A stretch of 64,000 nt of DNA from a virus. Position numbers and translations under genes: made by a program. Shown here one piece after another: positions 39,275 to 58,798 of the stretch. The stretch covers positions 13,230 to 77,229 of the IMG/VR virus record IMGVR_UViG_3300020060_000010, one strand, 5' to 3'. Every line of letters starts with the position of its first letter. Positions within the stretch are counted from its first letter, which is position 1. Under the pieces are notes generated by a model that worked only from the letters and a program-made list of their open reading frames with translations, did not search any database and had not been told where the DNA came from.

Positions 39275-39394
39275 GACGTTTACCTTGATAGACTGTACTG
39301 TTGATTCAATTTTACAGCACGGCACAAGTCGAGTCCAGAGAATGAGTTGTCAGATTCCTACAAAAATACGTCAGAAAGTTTGTAGGTAAAATCA

Positions 39395-39424
39395 TTGACA
39401 AAGATTTGCCCAGTATTTTATAAT
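39395..39424 (+). promoter_or_regulatory. Perfect-consensus promoter
   Basis: TTGACA-18-TATAAT. Confidence 0.75.
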
Positions 39425-39430
39425 TGAATC

Positions 39431-39680
39431 TTAGTACTTAAATAATTACTTCGTACTCTCTCATAACTCATACATTTCTCGTTCCTCGAAATGCATAAGT
39501 TATTCAAGAATACTCAGTAATTATGAAAGAAATTTTGAAATTCATTTCGGAAAACAACAAACGAAAAAAACTAACTTAGCGGGAAAGAATTCCAGTAGTC
39601 CGAAGGACAGTTCTCTTCCGGCATACCGAAGGTAACTATCTCCGTTCCGCTTCGCTCCACTACGATAGTTGTGCTGCAAC
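39431..39680 (+). ncRNA. Candidate AT-rich structured RNA upstream of HNH gene
   Basis: Nested stems ATAATTACT/AGTAATTAT, ATAACT/AGTTAT, CATTTC/GAAATG; GTCC-GAA-GGAC; AACTATC/GATAGTT. Confidence 0.4.
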
Positions 39681-40487: not shown

Positions 40488-40935
40488 TATCGGGTCAAGC
40501 GAAACCGTAGGGATTGCCTCACTAGCTCAGCAGTCAGGACTAGGGTTGAGTCTCTGAGAGTAGCGCCATAGTTACTCCGGAGATACCCGTAAGTGTCGGC
40601 TTGACAGTAGGAAAGCAAGATGATAGCGTGAGACCAGAACGAACGGCCACTGTGCCACTAGTAAGGTGGTGATTATCATGACTGGGCCAGAGAAAGACTG
40701 GCACCCGAAAGCTTGACAACAGAATAGCTTGGCGGAACAATCCTGAATAAATAGGATACTCCCCAAGTCAGTCCGATATAACCAGCCGGACTATAAATGG
40801 ACTTGGTTGGGTTGCATAGCCCAATAGTATGCCGTACTGGAAATCATCCGAAAACAGAATCCCGGTGTGATCTCAGGAAACCGTCTCTACAAGCCGTAAA
40901 CCGCAAGAGACGGACCCACCTAAACTTCTATGAGA
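40488..40935 (+). ncRNA. Candidate large structured ncRNA C
   Basis: About 450 nt with no credible ORF and at least seven hand-paired hairpins, after promoter TTGACA-17-TAGATT. Confidence 0.5.
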
Positions 40936-41682: not shown

Positions 41683-41892
41683 GACGGGGCTTGACTTGCC
41701 CAGTCGGCAGGCGTAGAGTAAAACTTAATAGAACAGCAGGGAAGCCGAGAGGCAGAGTAGGTCCAGGGTCAGGCCGTAAAGCGTCGGGCGGACAGAAAAC
41801 TCTCGGTAGTTTCAATTCTCGATAGCGCGACATAGAGAAATGTCTCTATCGGGAGTTGTGATTCAAAACCCTAACGAGAGATAGGCGAGACA

Positions 41893-42015
41893 ATGAAGGT
41901 TCGCGCGTTGATCGTAATCTTTTGTTCTATTGCAGCACTTATCGGCTTTCTACTGCCGCCGGACCCTTGGCAAGCAATTGCGGATGCCATTCGATCTTAC
42001 TACACTTATAACTAA
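41893..42015 (+). CDS. 40-aa membrane peptide
   Basis: Hand translation MKVRALIVIFCSIAALIGFLLPPDPW...; AGACAATG start. Confidence 0.55.
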   Translation: MKVRALIVIFCSIAALIGFLLPPDPWQAIADAIRSYYTYN

Positions 42016-45418: not shown

Positions 45419-45518
45419 CGAGTTGTCCACGATGTGAGATCCGGGCTTGACACTGAGCCCGGACTCACGTAAGTTTTGTCTTAGCGGGAGAGATAGTCTC
45501 TCCGGCAGAGAGGTAGAA

Positions 45519-45798: not shown

Positions 45799-45993
45799 AT
45801 GAGTAACGATGACAACCCCTACACGTGTACGGGAGAGGCTCAAAAGATGGGCAAGGGAGAGCGGGTGAGGGACATCTTGTTCCATGGTCTGGTCCTTCCC
45901 CTGGTCGGGGCGGCATCGGTGATCGTAGGTCTCTACGCGGGAATGACACTCGATTCATTCCTAGGACTGTCTCGGCTGGTTTACGGGAAGTAG
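45799..45993 (+). CDS. Early membrane protein
   Basis: Start moved to MSNDDN; GAGGAGG RBS; one TM. Confidence 0.65.
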   Translation: MSNDDNPYTCTGEAQKMGKGERVRDILFHGLVLPLVGAASVIVGLYAGMTLDSFLGLSRLVYGK

Positions 45994-46087
45994 GAAAACT
46001 GCCAAGAAGTTGGCAGGAAACTAGCGGGTAAACCACTTGACACGGCAGGCAGGGACCGGTAATGTTTGCCTTGCGGGGATGAAAACT

Positions 46088-46221
46088 TAACAGAGAGTCG
46101 GCCAAGAGAATACGGCGACAGACCCGAAAGGGCTCACGTCGATAGGGTGTCAGCGACAGATACTAAATCCGGCAGACCCGGTACCCGTCAAACCATGGTA
46201 GTAACCACCGACTCTCTGTTA
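46088..46221 (+). ncRNA. Candidate multibranch RNA D (5' leader or independent ncRNA)
   Basis: Perfect 14-bp closing stem TAACAGAGAGTCGG/CCGACTCTCTGTTA enclosing CCC-GAAA-GGG and other hairpins. Confidence 0.6.
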
Positions 46222-46259
46222 GATCTTCACTCTCGACCGAACCGACGAAAGGCAAGACA

Positions 46260-46343
46260 ATGGCTGCACCTGCTACTTGTTCGGGAAACGGAACGTGTGA
46301 CCCGCGCATCCCTCACATTTGTTACAAGGGAACCAAAGCCTGA
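46260..46343 (+). CDS. 27-aa Cys-containing peptide
   Basis: MAAPATCSGNGTCDPRIPHICYKGTKA; GAAAGGCAAGACAATG start as in other early genes. Confidence 0.55.
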   Translation: MAAPATCSGNGTCDPRIPHICYKGTKA

Positions 46344-46362
46344 CAGACCAGCAAGACAGGAT

Positions 46363-46387
46363 GGCCCCGCTACGGCGGGGTTTTCTT
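46363..46387 (+). terminator. Intrinsic terminator
   Basis: CCCCGC-TACG-GCGGGG-TTTTCTT. Confidence 0.8.
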
Positions 46388-46702
46388 GCGTCCTGGCGCG
46401 CGTCTCTGACCTTGGCATGTCTGACCTGGACTGATGTACGGGAAGAGTCCTGAGCGGGCCGTGGCGGGCTGGCTACCCTCCGGCAGGGAGGGTCGGGCGT
46501 GAGCTTGCGAGCGACCGGGGTGGGTTGGGAGAGTCATCCCAAAGGATGGTCACTCAGTAGTATGAAGTATGTGATAAGGGATTGATGGTAGACAGATAGG
46601 TAGAACAAATGATAGGTTGGAAGGGATGAGTAAGAATAAACGTGCAACCAAGAGTTGCGCTTAGGGTTCAAACCAACATATTGAAGGATATCGATTTGAA
46701 AG

Positions 46703-46984
46703 GTGGTGATAATGATGGTCGAAAGGGTCATCAAACTTAGACATTCTCTCGCATTCCACGCGCGTAAAGGCGCTGAATTGTTCCCTGACGACGTGCCTAC
46801 GGGGAAACGGATATGCAAAGGCAAATGTGGTCTAGCCCTGCCTACGGGGAAGTTCTATACGTGGAAAGACCAGAGAGATAACCGCACCTATACCCGTACA
46901 GAATGCAAAGACTGTCACCTAGATAAGACCAATGAAGCGAGACGTAATAGGAAAGGCAAAGGGGTGCCTACGGGGACAGAATAG
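46703..46984 (+). CDS. Small Zn-finger protein (endonuclease VII N-terminal-like)
   Basis: KRICKGKCG..LP..KFY....R....TECKDCH; GAAAGGTGGTG RBS. Confidence 0.6.
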   Translation: MVIMMVERVIKLRHSLAFHARKGAELFPDDVPTGKRICKGKCGLALPTGKFYTWKDQRDNRTYTRTECKDCHLDKTNEARRNRKGKGVPTGTE

Positions 46985-47097
46985 AACTCTCTCCGCATGC
47001 CTACGGGGATTGATATGGGTATGCCTACGGGGAATGGGAAAGGCTATTCAATGCACTCTATTGACCCGCCTATTCATGTCCACGCATGCCTACGGGG
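46794..47097 (+). repeat. Six exact TGCCTACGGGG direct repeats
   Basis: Start at 46794, 46839, 46965, 46998, 47022 and 47087. Confidence 0.9.
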
Positions 47098-47719
47098 CGG
47101 CATCCATATCAAGGGCTAGATGCCTCTATGCGGGACCAGTAGACAGCTACCCATACAGACACACCATGGCAGGGGTCAACGCTCTCTAGGGTGGCACACA
47201 GGGGCAGGGAGGAGTGGTGCTGCTGTGAGTGCAGGCGCTGTAGGGGCACGTGTAGGGCGTCCAGTGGCGTTAGGTAGCCTAGCTATGTGGTTTGATGTCG
47301 AGTTCGAGTTGTAGGCGGGGTGGAGGGGATGGGGCGCGTTAGATACACCCCCAGCGAAACAGAGGCTGGCCCTCCCTCTTTTCGTAAATGGGCGTATTCC
47401 GTGGACACCGGAATGTCAAAAGTGTACCGAAAGTGGTACGGTTTTGACACGAGAAAATCCCCAAGTCGGAATAAGAGGCTGGCTATTCCGAGTTATCATT
47501 TAACGAGCTTGTCATCTATTAAAGGATATGACAAGTTGAAGCAAGTTATTTGTCACTTCCGCTCGACATGGTAAATATCCGAGGATAATCTTCTATGTTT
47601 TAGTGATATCATAGTTCACAATAAGGGCCAGTTCATTATTTTTATAAACAGTCTTAAGTTGAACGTAGCCATGTTTCTCGAACTGACCTGTTTCTTCTCT
47701 GAGGAAACGGAGAAACAAG

Positions 47720-47750
47720 AAAACCCCGCCGGATCTACCGGAACGGGGCC
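47720..47750 (-). terminator. Intrinsic terminator
   Basis: Minus strand GGCCCCGTTCCGG-TAGAT-CCGGCGGGGTT followed by TTCTTGTTT. Confidence 0.7.
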
Positions 47751-47754
47751 AGCG

Positions 47755-48064
47755 AGCACCTGTGGCTTTAACCACAGATGAGCTTACTCTTGCGCCTCAC
47801 CTCGGAATCAGTAGTGGCTTATCCGAAGTCTCTTGACTTGGTAGATTTCTCAGAGGCTCTACCTGCCCGCTGGTCTCACGTTCCCAGCAAACGCCTGGAG
47901 CCATCACTACAAGGCCACAGGAACTTCTTCTGTTTTTTTGACTTAGCCACGGTCCACATGGGGGGCCGCAAGCAGCACGACTAAGTCTTATCTCCTGTGC
48001 CGGAGTCCTGCGAGGCTCCTCCCATTTGAGCATTCTTTCGAAGAGGCTTGGGAGGATGTCTATT
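47755..48064 (-). ncRNA. Candidate structured ncRNA E
   Basis: About 310 nt with at least eight hand-paired stems, between promoter TATACA-17-TAGAAT (extended -10) and a terminator. Confidence 0.55.
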
Positions 48065-48325
48065 ATTTCTATTCTATCATCCGAAATAGAACCTGTATAC
48101 CTTTAGATGATACTTCTTCAACCACTCTGCCTCGTCCGGGTGCATGACTACCTCATTAGAGATATCGCCTGGCGGGCGTGAGCGGAGCGAGCGGGTTCTC
48201 TTCATCCGGCTCGTCGTAGTACCATTCATCCGGCAGTGGGCCAGTAGAGTTGAGGTATTCGGCGTATTCTTCTTTGGTCAGGACGCGGAAACGAAGTTGA
48301 TCTTTGGGTTTACCCGGCGATTTAG

Positions 48326-52606: not shown

Positions 52607-55099
52607 ATGACACAGACTGAACAAGAGTACGCAGAGCAGCTACATGCCCTGCTCCAGCCGAGAATCCTTGATGAATACGCAGTACACGTACCACACCCTG
52701 CCCAACAGGTAGCTCTTGCCCTCCCGGCGAAGGAGATGCTGTTTGGTGGTGCTGCTGGTGGTGGAAAGGCCCTGGCCTTGGATACACCTATTCGCACACC
52801 ACTTGGCTGGACCACCATGAGTGATCTACCTATCGGTGCGCTGGTTTATGACGAAAATGGAGAGCCTTGTAAGGTTGTCTGGAAGTCGGAGGTCCAAGAA
52901 GGCCGTCCGTGCTATCGAGTTCAGTTTTCTGACGGATCAGAAATTGTAGCCGACCAGGATCACAAATGGTCTGTTGGGTTAGCAGGCAGCCGAAATCAGA
53001 GCCAACACATCAAGACTACTGGCGAAATGTTTCGCACTATGGAAACAGCCAAGAGGGTCAAATTCTATATCGACGTAGCCCGCCCGCTTTTCCAGTTCAA
53101 GGAAGAATACCCAATTGATCCGTATATCATGGGCTATTGGCTTGGTGACGGGGATACCAGACGAGGCTATGTGACAATTGGTGATTCAGATTTCGAATCA
53201 GTCTCGGCACTGTTTGAAGCTTGTGGTGAAACTCTTACCAAGCTCGCGCCTATGCATTACAAGGTCGAAGGCTTGACCAAGCGTCTAATTTCTCTTGGTA
53301 TCGTTGGACCGCAGGCTGTTGACGGAGTCAAGATGACACCGCGACCAAAGCGCATTCCCCGTCAGTATATCGAAGAAGGCAACATTGAGCAGAGACTCGC
53401 ACTGCTCCAGGGCTTGGTTGATAGTGACGGATTTGTAGACTCGGACATTGAACTAACAACAGTCAGCGCCGAATTGGCTAAAGACTATCTCGAACTAATT
53501 TTATCTCTCGGTATCAAGGCGACGATTCGTGAAGGTGTCGCAACTTTGAATGGCCGGATCATCGGCCCAAAGTATCGAATCAAGTTTGTTACCGATATGG
53601 AAAGCGCTCGACTACCGCGCAAGCTGGCTCGCCAAAAAGTTGACGGATTTAGAGGCACACACAACAAGCGATACATTACTGCCATTATCGCTACAGAATC
53701 CGTACCAGTACAGTGTATCGGTGTAGACTCGCCAAGTCACTTGTATCTCGCTGGACGCGAATTAATTCCGACCCACAACAGCGACTTCCTCCTGATGGCT
53801 GCTCTCCGCTACGTGGACGTGCCTGGATACTCTGCCATTCTGTTCCGTCGTACGTACAAGCAGCTTATCGAATCAGGCGCTATCCTTGACCGTTTCAAGT
53901 CTTGGATGGCTGGCAAGAACGTGAAAAAGGAAGAGCGAGGCATGACCTGGGTCTTCCCTTCCGGCGCCAAGATTCGCTTTGGACACATTCACCGTGAAGC
54001 CGACAAGTACAACTACCAAGGTGCTGAATTCCAGTTCATCGGATTCGATGAGGCCACGATGTTCGAGCCTGACATCTACACTTGGGCATTCTCTCGTCTC
54101 CGTAAGCCAACTGTGTCGTGCAACTACTGCTCGTTGCCTCTGACCGGCGCTAAGAATGGCTTCATCCATCTGGCTAGCCAGAAGGAAGCCTGCAATACAC
54201 CCATGCCGGATGAGCGAGTGTTGAACCAGTACTCTCCTGCCGAGCGCGACGGAATGACTGTCTTCGACCTGCCACTACAGGTCATCGCTACCGCCAACCC
54301 TGGTGGTCTATCTCATGAGTTCTTCAAGGAACGCTTCGTAGACCCAGCAGACCCAGACCTTCACGATGAAGAGGAAATGGCCGCGCGCAAGCAGCGCGCC
54401 TATATTCCTTCGACCATTCGTGACAACCCTTCTCTTAACCAGGAAGAGTACATGGCTACTCTTCAGAACCTATCAATGGTTGACCGTGAGCGCTACCTGA
54501 ACGGTGACTGGGAGATCCTGGAAGAAGGCAATCTGTTCAAGGCCAGCGACTTCCAGTATGTGGAGCGAGGTCCAAGTCCGGATGACGTTAAGTCTCGTGT
54601 GCGATTCTGGGACTTCGCGGCGTCCGATGGTCAGCACTCTGACTGGACAGCCGGAGCACTCTGCTCTATCACCAAAGACGGCCGATGGTTCATTGAGGAC
54701 ATGAAGCGGGTCCGCGCACTACCTCCAGACGTGGAGAAGCTGGTCAAGAAGACAGCACAAGAAGATGGTATCGGAGTCCGCGTCTATTCCGAGCAGGAGC
54801 CTGGCTCGTCCGGTAAGGCTCTCGTATCTTACTACAAGCGTCACGTTCTCGCTGGCTGGAGATACGACGGAGTCCGCAGTACCGGCAGTAAGACTGACCG
54901 CGCTGGCTCCCTCGTCTCACAGACCGAAGGAAAGAATGTCTACCTCGTCAAGGCATCTTGGAACAAGGCTTTCACTACCGAAGCGAGCCTGTTCCCGGTC
55001 GGCGCACACGACGACCAGGTGGACGCTGCAGCGGGTGCATTTGTAGCAATGACAGTGAACGCAAAAAGAAAAGTGCGACTTGTTACCAGATACAACTAA
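52607..55099 (+). CDS. terL: Terminase large subunit (intein-containing)
   Basis: GGAAGGGK|S Walker A, YQGAEFQFIGFDEAT Walker B, ATANPGG, RFWDFAAS, HDDQVDA. Confidence 0.95.
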   Translation: MTQTEQEYAEQLHALLQPRILDEYAVHVPHPAQQVALALPAKEMLFGGAAGGGKALALDTPIRTPLGWTTMSDLPIGALVYDENGEPCKVVWKSEVQEGRPCYRVQFSDGSEIVADQDHKWSVGLAGSRNQSQHIKTTGEMFRTMETAKRVKFYIDVARPLFQFKEEYPIDPYIMGYWLGDGDTRRGYVTIGDSDFESVSALFEACGETLTKLAPMHYKVEGLTKRLISLGIVGPQAVDGVKMTPRPKRIPRQYIEEGNIEQRLALLQGLVDSDGFVDSDIELTTVSAELAKDYLELILSLGIKATIREGVATLNGRIIGPKYRIKFVTDMESARLPRKLARQKVDGFRGTHNKRYITAIIATESVPVQCIGVDSPSHLYLAGRELIPTHNSDFLLMAALRYVDVPGYSAILFRRTYKQLIESGAILDRFKSWMAGKNVKKEERGMTWVFPSGAKIRFGHIHREADKYNYQGAEFQFIGFDEATMFEPDIYTWAFSRLRKPTVSCNYCSLPLTGAKNGFIHLASQKEACNTPMPDERVLNQYSPAERDGMTVFDLPLQVIATANPGGLSHEFFKERFVDPADPDLHDEEEMAARKQRAYIPSTIRDNPSLNQEEYMATLQNLSMVDRERYLNGDWEILEEGNLFKASDFQYVERGPSPDDVKSRVRFWDFAASDGQHSDWTAGALCSITKDGRWFIEDMKRVRALPPDVEKLVKKTAQEDGIGVRVYSEQEPGSSGKALVSYYKRHVLAGWRYDGVRSTGSKTDRAGSLVSQTEGKNVYLVKASWNKAFTTEASLFPVGAHDDQVDAAAGAFVAMTVNAKRKVRLVTRYN
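52769..53779 (+). mobile_element. Class 3 intein with LAGLIDADG endonuclease (337 aa)
   Basis: Starts ALALDTPI (Ala1), block B DQDHKW, block F VQCIGV, block G IPTHN|S; YWLGDG and LLQGLVDSDG. Confidence 0.9.
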
Positions 55100-55531: not shown

Positions 55532-58500
55532 ATGGGCTTTCTCGACAATGTGTTTCGTAAGAGCGTAAGCTCTGAGGTTGAGACCAAGAAGCGCGGATTC
55601 GTAAACTTGGGTGGCGGAAACTTCGGTTTCGGCAACGGATACGACCGTGGCAGTAAGTGGGATGACTTTGAGTACGCCCAAGACCGTGGTTTGGACCTTG
55701 TTGTTTGGGTATATCGCTGTGTAGACGCTATCGCGAACAGCCAGGCTGGCGTCACTATCAATACTCACAAAAAAGGTGATCCTCTCAACTCATTCGTTGA
55801 GATGGACAACGTCTTCAATATCTTGAACTCTTGGTCCAACCCATACGAGAACTCATTCAACTGGCGTTACCGCCTAACTGCCCAACTACTTCTTTCTACC
55901 CAGGGTGCCTTCATTGAGGTCTCTAAGACCGCAAGTGGCAAGATTATGCATGCCTACCTGCTTAACCCAGGTCAGGTTGAGGTCGTTCGTCACCCCACCC
56001 AGTTCGTGGACCACTACAAGGTCAACCGTGGAACTCATATCGAAGAGGTTCCCAAGGACAATATCATCTGGGTCATGATTAAGCCTCGCCCAGGCGACCC
56101 TTACACACAGATGACTCCGATTACTTCCGCCGGTGTCGCAATCGATACTGACTATCTCGCCCGCAAGTTCAATGCTAACTTCCTGAAGAACGATGGCCGC
56201 CCCGGAATGCTTATTGCCATCAATGGCGACGCGGACCAGGACACCACCGCTGAAATTCTTGACCAGTTCAGAGGCGGTCCTGCTGCAGCCGGTATGCCGG
56301 TTGTCATCGAGGCAGACGGCATGGACGTTATCGACATGCAAGGTAAGCCACGCGATGCACAGTGGGAAGAAGCCATTGCGAGCGCCAAGGATACAATCCT
56401 TGCTGCATTCGGTGTGCCAGAGTCTGTCCTTGGTAACGCCTCCGGCCGATGCCTCCGTGCTTCTGAGAAGGTTCACCTGGCCAACGGTTCTATCAAGAAG
56501 GCCGAAGAACTTGTCGGTCAGACCGTTGAACTTATGCAGACCTGGAAGGGCACCAACCAAAAGGTCAATGCCCGCGTCGAGTACGCAGCCAAGGAACCAA
56601 TTTACAAGCTGACTACATTTTCTGGTCGCACCATCGAGACCAATGGCGAGCACCCTCTCTACATGGCTACCTGTAGCGCGTGGGGAAAGTTTAAGCGTGA
56701 CTTCTACGCGCACGCATGGACACCCATGCATGCAATCAGCCTCAACTACAAGCGTCACGACGCGGTTGGTGACGGAACTTACACCGAGGTCGCTATCCCT
56801 CTTCACTTTAATGATGAAGATGGACCAGATTTCAACTTTGATGACGCTTTCGAAGATGGAAAGAACCTTGACGTAGTTCCTGACTACATCTTCAAGGCCA
56901 GCGCTGAAACCAAGCGTTCTTTCCTTTCCGGCGTCTACTCAACTCATGGTCGTGTTTCACAGCACACAGCGTTTGATGTAGTTGTCCCAAGCCTCCAGTA
57001 CGCCTCAGATCTTCAGATTATCCTTCAGCGTCTTGGAATTAATGCTTATGTCAATACAAAGAAGCTAACTCGCGTCGTTTCTATCGGTGGCAAGGTCAAT
57101 ATCGTCAATTTCTTGGCTCAGGTCGAGATTGTTGGCGACAACGAGGCCAAGGCCATCGCAGTTTTTGAGCGTCTGTCTACCGACACAACTCGTGAAATCA
57201 ACTTCCACCGCTCCGATGACCTTCCAGAAGGCTTCATCTGGGACCGAATTGCAGACGTTGAGCTAATTGGCGTGGATCAGACAGTTGCTATCACCATCAA
57301 CAAGGGCGACAACAGCTACCTGTCCAGCTTCCTTGAGCACAATACCTACTCTAACGCTGAAACTGAGAACGAAGGCTTCTGGGTTGGCACCATGAAGCCT
57401 CACTGTCAGGCAATTTCGCGTGGACTTGAGCCACTAACTGGTTCAATCACTGACGATATTACCTTGAAGTTCAATTTCAACGAGATTGACGTTCTTGAGC
57501 GCGTCGAGCGCAAGCGTCTTGACACAGTTAAGCAGGATTGGGCTTCCGGAGCACTAACTCAGAACGAATATCTTGAGGCTATCGGTCGTCCACGCGTCAA
57601 GGACCCACTTGCTGACGTTTATATGTTGCCGAATGGCCTTCCAATTGGTGATCCTGACAACGTTCAGGCATACTGGGATGCTATGCGCCTACTTTCCGAG
57701 ATTCAGGCTCCAAAACAGCAAAATATGCTTGGTGCAAGCCCATTTAGCTCTAACGGAGCTATTGGTGATGGCATTGTCGGCGGTCGTAATGATATGATTA
57801 CCGGTCAGACAGCAGCAGTTGGTATCAACAGCGGTCAGACCATCAACCAGCAGGCCGCTCGTACTCTCCGCTCTGCCAATCACAATAATACGACACCGGC
57901 TGCAGTGAACCCGAACGCCGTAACGGCCGTGTCTGACCGTGTTTCGCAGCTAATCAACAAGACTGATGAAGTTGAGGCTGTTATCGAGGTCAAGCAGATC
58001 GATATGAGCGATCCTCACAAGAATGTGCGCCACAGAATGCACGGATTCCTTGAAGGATGCCTCGAATCTTGGTCCAGCAGACAGATTAGTGTTGTTTCCG
58101 ACCGCGTGAGCCACGTCAAGGTCCGCAAGGGAACTCGTCACTGGGACGGCGAGACAAAAGTAGACCGCGTACTCGATACTGGCTACATTGTCGAGCAGGA
58201 TCAGTGGATTACTGACCTCAAGGCAAACATCGCTCCATCTATCCGTAAGACACTTCGTGACCGCGCGTTCGATATTGCTACCGAACTCAAGGAAAACGGT
58301 CACGTACGTCCCAAGCCTGGCTCAGGCGCACTGGAGACCCTCCTAGGTGAAGATTACAGTGACCAGATCAAGGCAATCGCAGATTGCGCAGTAGATTACG
58401 TCTCTGAGTCAGCCAAGAGTCAAACTGAACTTGTTGCCAAGCACATTTCGATCCTGGACAGCGACAACCGCTCAATTGATGAGATCAAGTCCACTCTGGA

Positions 58501-58798
58501 TTCCGAGACCTTCGATCGCGACCGTTGGATTATTGCTCTGGCCAAGACTGCCACCACTGCAGCCCTGGAAGACCTTTCTGACCTGCTCTACTTCAACGTA
58601 AGCGAGAAGGCTTACAAGATTTGGCGTACGGCCGGAGATGAACACTTCCGTGCAGACCACATTAGCCTCAATGGTGTAAAATTGTCTGTTAAGGACTCCT
58701 TCACTGCCGGTACCGAACAACTACGATACCCTTGTGATGGATACAGCGACGCAAACAGCGTATGCTCTTGCTGGATTTACTACGGAGTTGATTCGTAA
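55532..58798 (+). CDS. Portal protein (HK97-type) with intein and C-terminal MuF-like domain
   Basis: VYRCV.AIA, F..N.GRP, I..AFGVP.SVLG, LT.NE.L..IG; C-terminal KIW.T..D...R.DH..L.G...F...L.YP.D...C.C. Confidence 0.9.
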   Translation: MGFLDNVFRKSVSSEVETKKRGFVNLGGGNFGFGNGYDRGSKWDDFEYAQDRGLDLVVWVYRCVDAIANSQAGVTINTHKKGDPLNSFVEMDNVFNILNSWSNPYENSFNWRYRLTAQLLLSTQGAFIEVSKTASGKIMHAYLLNPGQVEVVRHPTQFVDHYKVNRGTHIEEVPKDNIIWVMIKPRPGDPYTQMTPITSAGVAIDTDYLARKFNANFLKNDGRPGMLIAINGDADQDTTAEILDQFRGGPAAAGMPVVIEADGMDVIDMQGKPRDAQWEEAIASAKDTILAAFGVPESVLGNASGRCLRASEKVHLANGSIKKAEELVGQTVELMQTWKGTNQKVNARVEYAAKEPIYKLTTFSGRTIETNGEHPLYMATCSAWGKFKRDFYAHAWTPMHAISLNYKRHDAVGDGTYTEVAIPLHFNDEDGPDFNFDDAFEDGKNLDVVPDYIFKASAETKRSFLSGVYSTHGRVSQHTAFDVVVPSLQYASDLQIILQRLGINAYVNTKKLTRVVSIGGKVNIVNFLAQVEIVGDNEAKAIAVFERLSTDTTREINFHRSDDLPEGFIWDRIADVELIGVDQTVAITINKGDNSYLSSFLEHNTYSNAETENEGFWVGTMKPHCQAISRGLEPLTGSITDDITLKFNFNEIDVLERVERKRLDTVKQDWASGALTQNEYLEAIGRPRVKDPLADVYMLPNGLPIGDPDNVQAYWDAMRLLSEIQAPKQQNMLGASPFSSNGAIGDGIVGGRNDMITGQTAAVGINSGQTINQQAARTLRSANHNNTTPAAVNPNAVTAVSDRVSQLINKTDEVEAVIEVKQIDMSDPHKNVRHRMHGFLEGCLESWSSRQISVVSDRVSHVKVRKGTRHWDGETKVDRVLDTGYIVEQDQWITDLKANIAPSIRKTLRDRAFDIATELKENGHVRPKPGSGALETLLGEDYSDQIKAIADCAVDYVSESAKSQTELVAKHISILDSDNRSIDEIKSTLDSETFDRDRWIIALAKTATTAALEDLSDLLYFNVSEKAYKIWRTAGDEHFRADHISLNGVKLSVKDSFTAGTEQLRYPCDGYSDANSVCSCWIYYGVDS
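56450..57343 (+). mobile_element. Class 1 intein in portal (298 aa), endonuclease partly degenerate
   Basis: GR|CLRASEKV start, TIETNGEHP block B, FLEHN|T end; FLSGVYSTHG is the only LAGLIDADG-like block seen. Confidence 0.9.

Follow-up and report, generated by a model that had tools for sequence, protein, structure and literature searches.

The window analysed here is a 64,000-nucleotide stretch of DNA that comprises bases 13230–77229 of IMG/VR virus record IMGVR_UViG_3300020060_000010, an 83.5-kb record estimated to be 66% complete. At 46037–46388 it contains a short plus-strand unit composed of a promoter, a folded RNA domain, an open reading frame (ORF) of 27 codons and an intrinsic terminator. 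A first reading of the sequence alone (the sequence-only reading) had described a self-contained promoter-to-terminator unit at this place and, in this respect, the description stands: all of the elements are intact and in the right order. Very probably it is a genuine unit of transcription. Its features, together with a hairpin that lies upstream of the promoter, are as follows.

45999–46016, no strand assigned: perfect 7-bp palindromic hairpin (−12.5 kcal/mol, z −3.1)
46037–46065, plus strand: promoter, TTGACA (46037–42), 17 nt, TAATGT (46060–65), member of a 43-copy class
46087–46101, plus strand: 5′ arm of closing helix P1, 14 perfect pairs and one U-G pair
46113–46141, plus strand: hairpin P2 with a GAAA tetraloop (loop 46126–29), pair probability 0.8–1.0
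46146–46207, plus strand: three short hairpins (46146–64, 46169–81 and 46196–207), pair probabilities 0.44–0.62
46208–46222, plus strand: 3′ arm of closing helix P1, pairing with 46087–46101
46245–46262, plus strand: putative translation initiation region (ACGAAAGG, C, AAGACAATG), with a signature common to five other gene starts
46260–46343, plus strand: 27-aa ORF with the spacing C-x5-C-x5-H-x-C, polar and with no hydrophobic stretch
46357–46388, plus strand: intrinsic terminator, a GC-rich hairpin followed by UUUUCUU (−22.6 kcal/mol, z −3.8)

The DNA belongs to a tailed phage that has not been cultivated. Genes in the right part of the window specify a terminase (52607–55099) and a portal protein (55532–58798), each with a LAGLIDADG intein, as well as a prohead protease and an HK97-type capsid protein. 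The nearest cultured relatives of the capsid protein are those of Gordonia phage GMA6 and of related Gordonia and Brevibacterium phages (∼44% identity) which, together with the TANNNT −10 boxes of the phage, suggests an actinobacterial host. The same phage was found in three further metagenome assemblies, one of them a 120-kb contig, and all three are identical to the window over 45799–46500. These copies differ from the window by only 1–2 bases in 5–20 kb (the phage is near-clonal there), and hence they provide no population-level information. Source samples of the phage are ENA ERZ27268008 and ERZ27268014 and JGI 3300020061. The terminase is 830 aa long in this phage, 902 aa in sister phages with a 97% identical terminase and 493–498 aa in the relatives L002 and L031, where it is too short to include an intein. 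A comparison of L002, L029 and L031 with the window thus suggests that intein content is variable in the phage group.

The promoter belongs to a class that is the phage's own. TTGAC[AT] separated by 16–18 nt from TANNNT occurs 43 times in the window compared with ∼3 occurrences expected from base frequencies, and all 12 of the plus-strand copies fall within 39.4–46.1 kb, a block of small plus-strand early genes. The TTGACA-17-TAATGT pair that had been picked out in the sequence-only reading is thus present and fits an enriched promoter class, with a predicted transcript start at ∼46072. An E. coli-style scanner misses it because the consensus used is that of E. coli and only three of the six positions of the −10 box match. 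The palindromic hairpin at 45999–46016 is directly 3′ of the stop codon of the upstream 64-aa gene (45799–45993) and on the minus strand it resembles a terminator. By appearance it is either a variant of the phage operator or a hairpin at the 3′ end of that 64-aa gene, and a relative (L008) carries the regular operator GTCCAAGATGCGAGA at the same position. Elsewhere in the early region a 14-nt motif, GCTCAGCAGTCAGG, is present at 40525, 42593 and 43472 with one or two changes, in leaders or intergenic DNA.

In the predicted transcript the folded domain is closed by a helix in which 46088–101 and 46208–221 pair perfectly over 14 bp with an extension by a U-G pair (46087/46222). Among perfect inverted repeats with arms up to 200 nt apart, the 64-kb window contains no other of 12 bp or longer, and first-order Markov resamples of the window contained a mean of 0.05 inverted repeats of at least 14 bp. 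The perfect helix described in the sequence-only reading is therefore both real and unique in the window. The enclosing 141 nt (46085–46225) fold with a predicted energy of −50.6 kcal/mol (RNAfold; z −4.47, with 0 of 200 shuffles as good), and the pair probability of the closing helix is >0.9 in the domain and ∼1.0 in the full predicted transcript. Hairpin P2 taken alone gives −12.8 kcal/mol (z −3.1). Alternative pairings are possible in 46146–46207, and the folded domain contains two copies each of the internal repeats GCGACAGA and CAGACCCG. According to these models, the closing helix and the GAAA hairpin are the only robust helices of the five and the other three are weakly predicted. The pairing scheme first proposed for the domain (−43.6 kcal/mol as a whole) survives to the same extent, with its closing helix and GAAA hairpin retained and its CGAC/GTCG and GGGTG/TACCC helices reduced to minor alternatives (probability ∼0.07–0.1). 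No helix has covariation support, since no homologue was found in anything searched.

On the scale of the window, the predicted plus-strand fold ranks only in the top 2% of 6,386 sliding 141-nt windows after correction for GC content. The minus strand of the domain reaches a lower raw energy (−56.9 kcal/mol) although with a weaker z-score (−3.96). A minus-strand RNA was rejected despite that lower raw energy, given the absence of a promoter, the weaker z-score and a terminator on the plus strand only. Identity as a tRNA or tmRNA was also rejected. The strongest GC-corrected local folds in the window lie elsewhere, at 39380–39580 (z ∼−5.2) and 600–820 (z ∼−4.6), both on the minus strand, and the former is located in an AT-rich island with a consensus TTGACA-18-TATAAT promoter at 39395–39424.

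The 27-aa ORF lies at 46260–46343, with the sequence originally given for it, and has no in-frame start upstream. Its initiation region has a signature consisting of a purine-rich Shine–Dalgarno (SD) sequence, one to three bases and then AAGACAATG. Elsewhere in the record this signature was found five times (38055 on the minus strand, 41213, 41893, 42354 and 44167), all five of which begin ORFs of 40–158 aa, and the two that were checked (41893 and 38055) are both called by gene callers in the identical contigs. Two copies of AGACAATG are not preceded by an SD sequence and both are inside genes. This start signature is the best available evidence on the point and by it the 27-aa ORF is probably translated. 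The initiation region has a mean unpaired probability of ∼0.5 and is predicted to pair weakly, and only with nearby coding sequence rather than with the leader. The peptide, for which a metal-binding or toxic role had been suggested in the sequence-only reading, has no Pfam or PHROG match. The ORF is skipped by the gene callers in the identical contigs, and neither it nor the folded RNA is called in any of the assemblies. A segment of 17 nt that spans the stop codon, CCAAAGCCTGACAGACC (46333–46349), is shared without mismatch with the 3′ end (192–211) of a 57-aa gene of the sister phage L037 that is unrelated to the ORF, which suggests a cassette-exchange boundary produced by recombination at cassette borders. 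A type I toxin–antitoxin arrangement was considered and rejected, as the peptide is polar and the phage's promoter class is not represented on the minus strand around 46230–46700.

The strong terminator described in the sequence-only reading is likewise present, beginning 13 nt past the stop codon of the 27-aa ORF. Its 3′ half (46373–88) has a perfect 16-nt reverse complement at 47716–31, in the terminator of a convergent minus-strand unit. That unit (47710–48075, minus strand; −137.9 kcal/mol, z −3.8) is a second promoter-to-terminator stretch with no convincing ORF, and it and the 46037–46388 unit converge on a 1.3-kb iteron region. A longer ORF of 122 aa (46066–46434) overlaps the unit but was rejected as a real gene, in that it starts at the −10 box, runs through the terminator and is not called by gene callers. 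It has no Pfam or PHROG match, and a phmmer search of 1.84 billion representative proteins returned three matches only (843–3,818 aa), each made up of 3–14 short stretches, which we read as low-complexity similarity.

Searches for relatives of the unit covered known RNA families, phage records and metagenomic contigs. The whole window gave no match to Rfam 15 at gathering thresholds, and at E≤10 no family was assigned within 45900–46500, including all riboswitch and ribozyme models. The sub-threshold matches in this interval, RsmY (20 bits, where the threshold is 57), istR and a CRISPR repeat, are driven by the terminator. A blastn search in distant mode with 45900–46500 found no homologue among 50,697 phage records. 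In the viral_contigs collection, none of the patterns used (exact and two-motif RNA patterns, the back-translated peptide, the pair of helix arms and the operator-promoter arrangement) matched beyond chance. The two-motif pattern had three matches in genome_contigs where about two are expected by chance; these are weak by covariance model (7–11 bits), and L033 and L035 match at a short hairpin only. A covariance model (R1) built from the sequence and predicted structure of the element found nothing except the element itself in the window, the 83.5-kb record, 19 related or terminase-linked loci and the complete GMA6 record. With this model on those loci, and with exact pattern scans, no homologue was recovered that could show the conservation with covariation of a riboswitch aptamer. 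The neighbouring proteins are near-orphans too, with one relative for the upstream 64-aa protein and none for the downstream 90-aa protein. A mobile inverted-repeat (MITE-like) element was rejected, given that the window and the 83.5-kb record contain only one copy and that the arm pair is absent from viral_contigs. Paralogy with the leader at 41691 was rejected as well, since only ∼15 nt at the start and the initiation region can be aligned. Hence, as judged by these searches, the unit is an orphan with no relatives among the collections searched.

The unit at 41691–42015 has features of its own. A 170-nt folded leader (z −2.2) precedes a gene for a 40-aa hydrophobic peptide that has the AGACAATG start signature, and its first bases, AAAACTTAATAGA, match 46080–46094, just before the closing helix of the 46037–46388 unit.

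The locus was compared with that of sister phages, which were found by a terminase search of a large protein collection and have terminases 97% identical to that of the window. In run SRR29078136 the counterpart of the upstream 64-aa gene (78% identity) precedes a promoter, after which come an unrelated Cys-rich gene of 57 aa and one further gene, and the 88.7-kb contig of this phage starts ∼180 nt beyond the place of the terminator. In run SRR29078261 unrelated genes of 57 and 72 aa are the last early cassettes before the conserved downstream region, and homology between this sister (L037) and the window resumes only at ∼46490. A search of JGI metagenomes with a terminase profile yielded one close relative, on a contig that ends short of the region. 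Thus, the expectation that RNA and peptide would be conserved and linked in relatives is not borne out, as the unit is missing from the corresponding position in the closest relatives. The test is a weak one because almost all early cassettes differ between these phages, and of five early genes seen in these relatives only one is common to the window. From this comparison, non-conservation is the rule in the early module and is not specific to the unit. The presence of other genes at the syntenic place marks the unit as a strain-specific cassette at a hypervariable junction.

The explanation that we place first, tentatively and at somewhat below even confidence, is that the unit is a strain-specific early cassette in which the folded 5′ domain, ahead of the micro-protein gene, serves to stabilise the message and/or as a module for its processing. 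The host-type promoter would give rise to a transcript of ∼315 nt, the first ∼150 nt of which would form an autonomous domain closed by the perfect 14–15-bp helix. Some 25 nt past the domain, a standard early-gene ribosome-binding region would direct translation of the 27-codon ORF for a Cys/His micro-protein ahead of the intrinsic terminator. The folded domain would leave the ribosome-binding site neither hidden nor exposed, and its role would be at the RNA level, as a 5′ stabiliser and/or as a double-strand-specific (RNase III-type) processing module. Stabilisation or processing would protect or release the tiny message, with a stable small RNA as a possible by-product. Transcription, translation and the stabilising or processing role are all things that we infer.

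RNase III stems are the sites at which the early mRNAs of T7 and SP82 are processed, and bacterial mRNAs can be stabilised by stem-loops at their 5′ ends, with ompA, ermC and SP82 as examples of such stabilisers. These systems have in common with the unit a long double-stranded stem in an early transcript (predicted in the present case), and they serve message stability or processing rather than ligand sensing. However, classical RNase III sites are single irregular hairpins of ∼20 bp or more, whereas the helix modelled here has 15 bp, is free of mismatches and encloses a branched insert of ∼105 nt. It is thus short for a classical RNase III site, and a five-way junction of 135 nt far exceeds what a stabiliser would need. 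Also counting against a stabiliser or processing module are the weak prediction of three of the five helices, a fold that stands out only at the 2% level window-wide and is surpassed in raw energy by its own minus strand, the lack of any homologue and hence of covariation, and the absence of the unit from sister phages.

Several observations favour the same explanation. The promoter is of the enriched class, with every plus-strand copy inside the early plus-strand block; the helix is without parallel in the window and is predicted to form almost invariably in the whole transcript, within a fold of z −4.47; the ORF shares its initiation signature with five real gene starts and is followed directly by a strong terminator; and the leader has no alternative pairing with the ribosome-binding site. 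Other early transcripts of the phage also carry 5′ hairpins (45485–45502) or long folded leaders (170 nt before the 40-aa gene at 41893), which makes 5′ RNA structure a theme of the early module and was counted in favour of the stabiliser or processing module. A precedent for a stable and abundant early RNA exists in the Pleft transcript of mycobacteriophages L5, D29 and StarStuff, a toxic non-coding RNA (ncRNA) of unknown function (PMC5712189). As in that case, the unit is found in an actinophage-type virus and has a strong early host-type promoter (here predicted), a short transcript, no ORF longer than ∼30 codons and an unknown function. In contrast, the two are unrelated in sequence: the Pleft RNA comes from a genome-end region of ∼500 nt and is conserved within Cluster A (PMC5712189), whereas the unit described here is an orphan with a defined terminator and an ORF that has a standard ribosome-binding region.

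It is also conceivable, although we consider it rather unlikely, that the folded RNA is itself the product, either as a trans-acting ncRNA (a decoy, a sponge or a regulator of a host protein or RNA) or as a dual-function RNA together with the peptide. The domain is autonomous and insulated and has its own promoter and terminator, and the phage contains several other promoter-driven, ORF-poor folded stretches, such as 47710–48075 on the minus strand (z −3.8). Dual-function RNAs such as RNAIII/hld (delta-haemolysin), SgrS/SgrT and SR1/SR1P similarly combine a folded domain with a very small ORF on a short transcript. However, they are conserved and have known base-pairing targets, whereas the unit has neither a known target nor a homologue. 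That L5 and D29 make an abundant, stable and toxic early ncRNA (PMC5712189) fits an RNA product as well. The unit is nonetheless a single copy with no homologue in the collections searched, and in sister phages its place is taken by protein-coding cassettes.

An unlikely origin is evolutionary debris: a recombination scar or decayed cassette at a hypervariable junction, in which neither the repeat nor the ORF has a selected function. An orphan unit that is absent from the nearest relatives, with homology to L037 returning only at ∼46490, would be expected of such a scar, as would an ORF whose last 17 nt are the 3′ end of an unrelated 57-aa L037 gene, like a remnant of a cassette boundary. A patchwork origin is suggested by the stretch just 3′ of the −10 box, which is similar to the start region and −10 box of the 41691 unit, and a fold within only the top 2% window-wide also speaks for this explanation. 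Decay is harder to reconcile with a mismatch-free 14-bp helix that has no second example in 64 kb (resample mean 0.05), and with a promoter, initiation region and terminator that are all intact and correctly ordered. The unit is also identical in three further contigs from other samples, but this is weak evidence against debris because the whole phage is near-clonal there.

We regard as quite improbable a more far-reaching proposal, that the unit represents a new class of autonomous phage RNA in which a five-way junction would bind a host factor or small ligand and be paired with the Cys/His micro-protein encoded on the same transcript for early takeover of the host. If expressed, the unit would be one more structured early RNA joined to a micro-protein in an actinophage-like virus, a field in which, to our knowledge, the L5/D29 Pleft RNA is the one well-documented case. 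One unconserved sequence is, however, not yet enough to define an RNA family. More generally, the early regions of phages of little-studied hosts are rich in tiny genes and folded RNAs that annotation pipelines miss.

The sequence-only reading had favoured a riboswitch- or ribozyme-like leader, that is, an RNA that controls the peptide gene by ligand-dependent switching or self-cleavage, and this has become highly improbable. The position in a 5′ leader, the multibranch junction with its GNRA tetraloop and the long closing helix are indeed reminiscent of the riboswitches and small self-cleaving ribozymes in Rfam 15. Unlike these, the domain matches no model at E≤10, is not conserved and lacks an expression platform. 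The most stable rival duplex that either helix arm could form with downstream sequence is predicted at −9.6 kcal/mol compared with −26 kcal/mol for the helix, and the ∼38 nt that separate domain and ORF (46223–46259) show no hairpin with a T-run behind it. With neither pairing between leader and ribosome-binding site nor a terminator before the ORF, the domain is an insulated module and does not have the architecture of a switch. What it regulated would, moreover, be an ORF of 27 codons with no known role. Self-cleaving ribozymes (hammerhead, twister, pistol, hatchet and HDV-like) were rejected on the grounds that no catalytic core or fold in Rfam was matched at E≤10.

Equally remote is a cis-acting RNA for processive antitermination, like HK022 put or EAR, that would allow read-through of 46357–88 into the Zn-finger and iteron region: a folded RNA directly 3′ of a promoter and 5′ of a strong terminator would suit this role, as would the lack of a convincing promoter of the phage's class before the downstream gene (46703–46984), but the put and EAR models of Rfam do not match it and the downstream region is kept in sister phages that do not have the folded RNA.

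In the downstream region an 11-bp repeat, TGCCTACGGGG, occurs in six copies within 46703–47097, inside and just 3′ of the Zn-finger ORF (46703–46984). Sister phages have a different repeat at that place, TGCCTACAGAG in L029 (281–352) and TGTCCGCTAA in L037 (1051–1320), and the L037 repeat is again partly inside an ORF, where it encodes MSAN in place of PTG. Repeat and carrier gene thus vary in concert, which is what a DNA-binding protein and its sites would be expected to do, and the repeat region of the Zn-finger ORF is possibly an origin.
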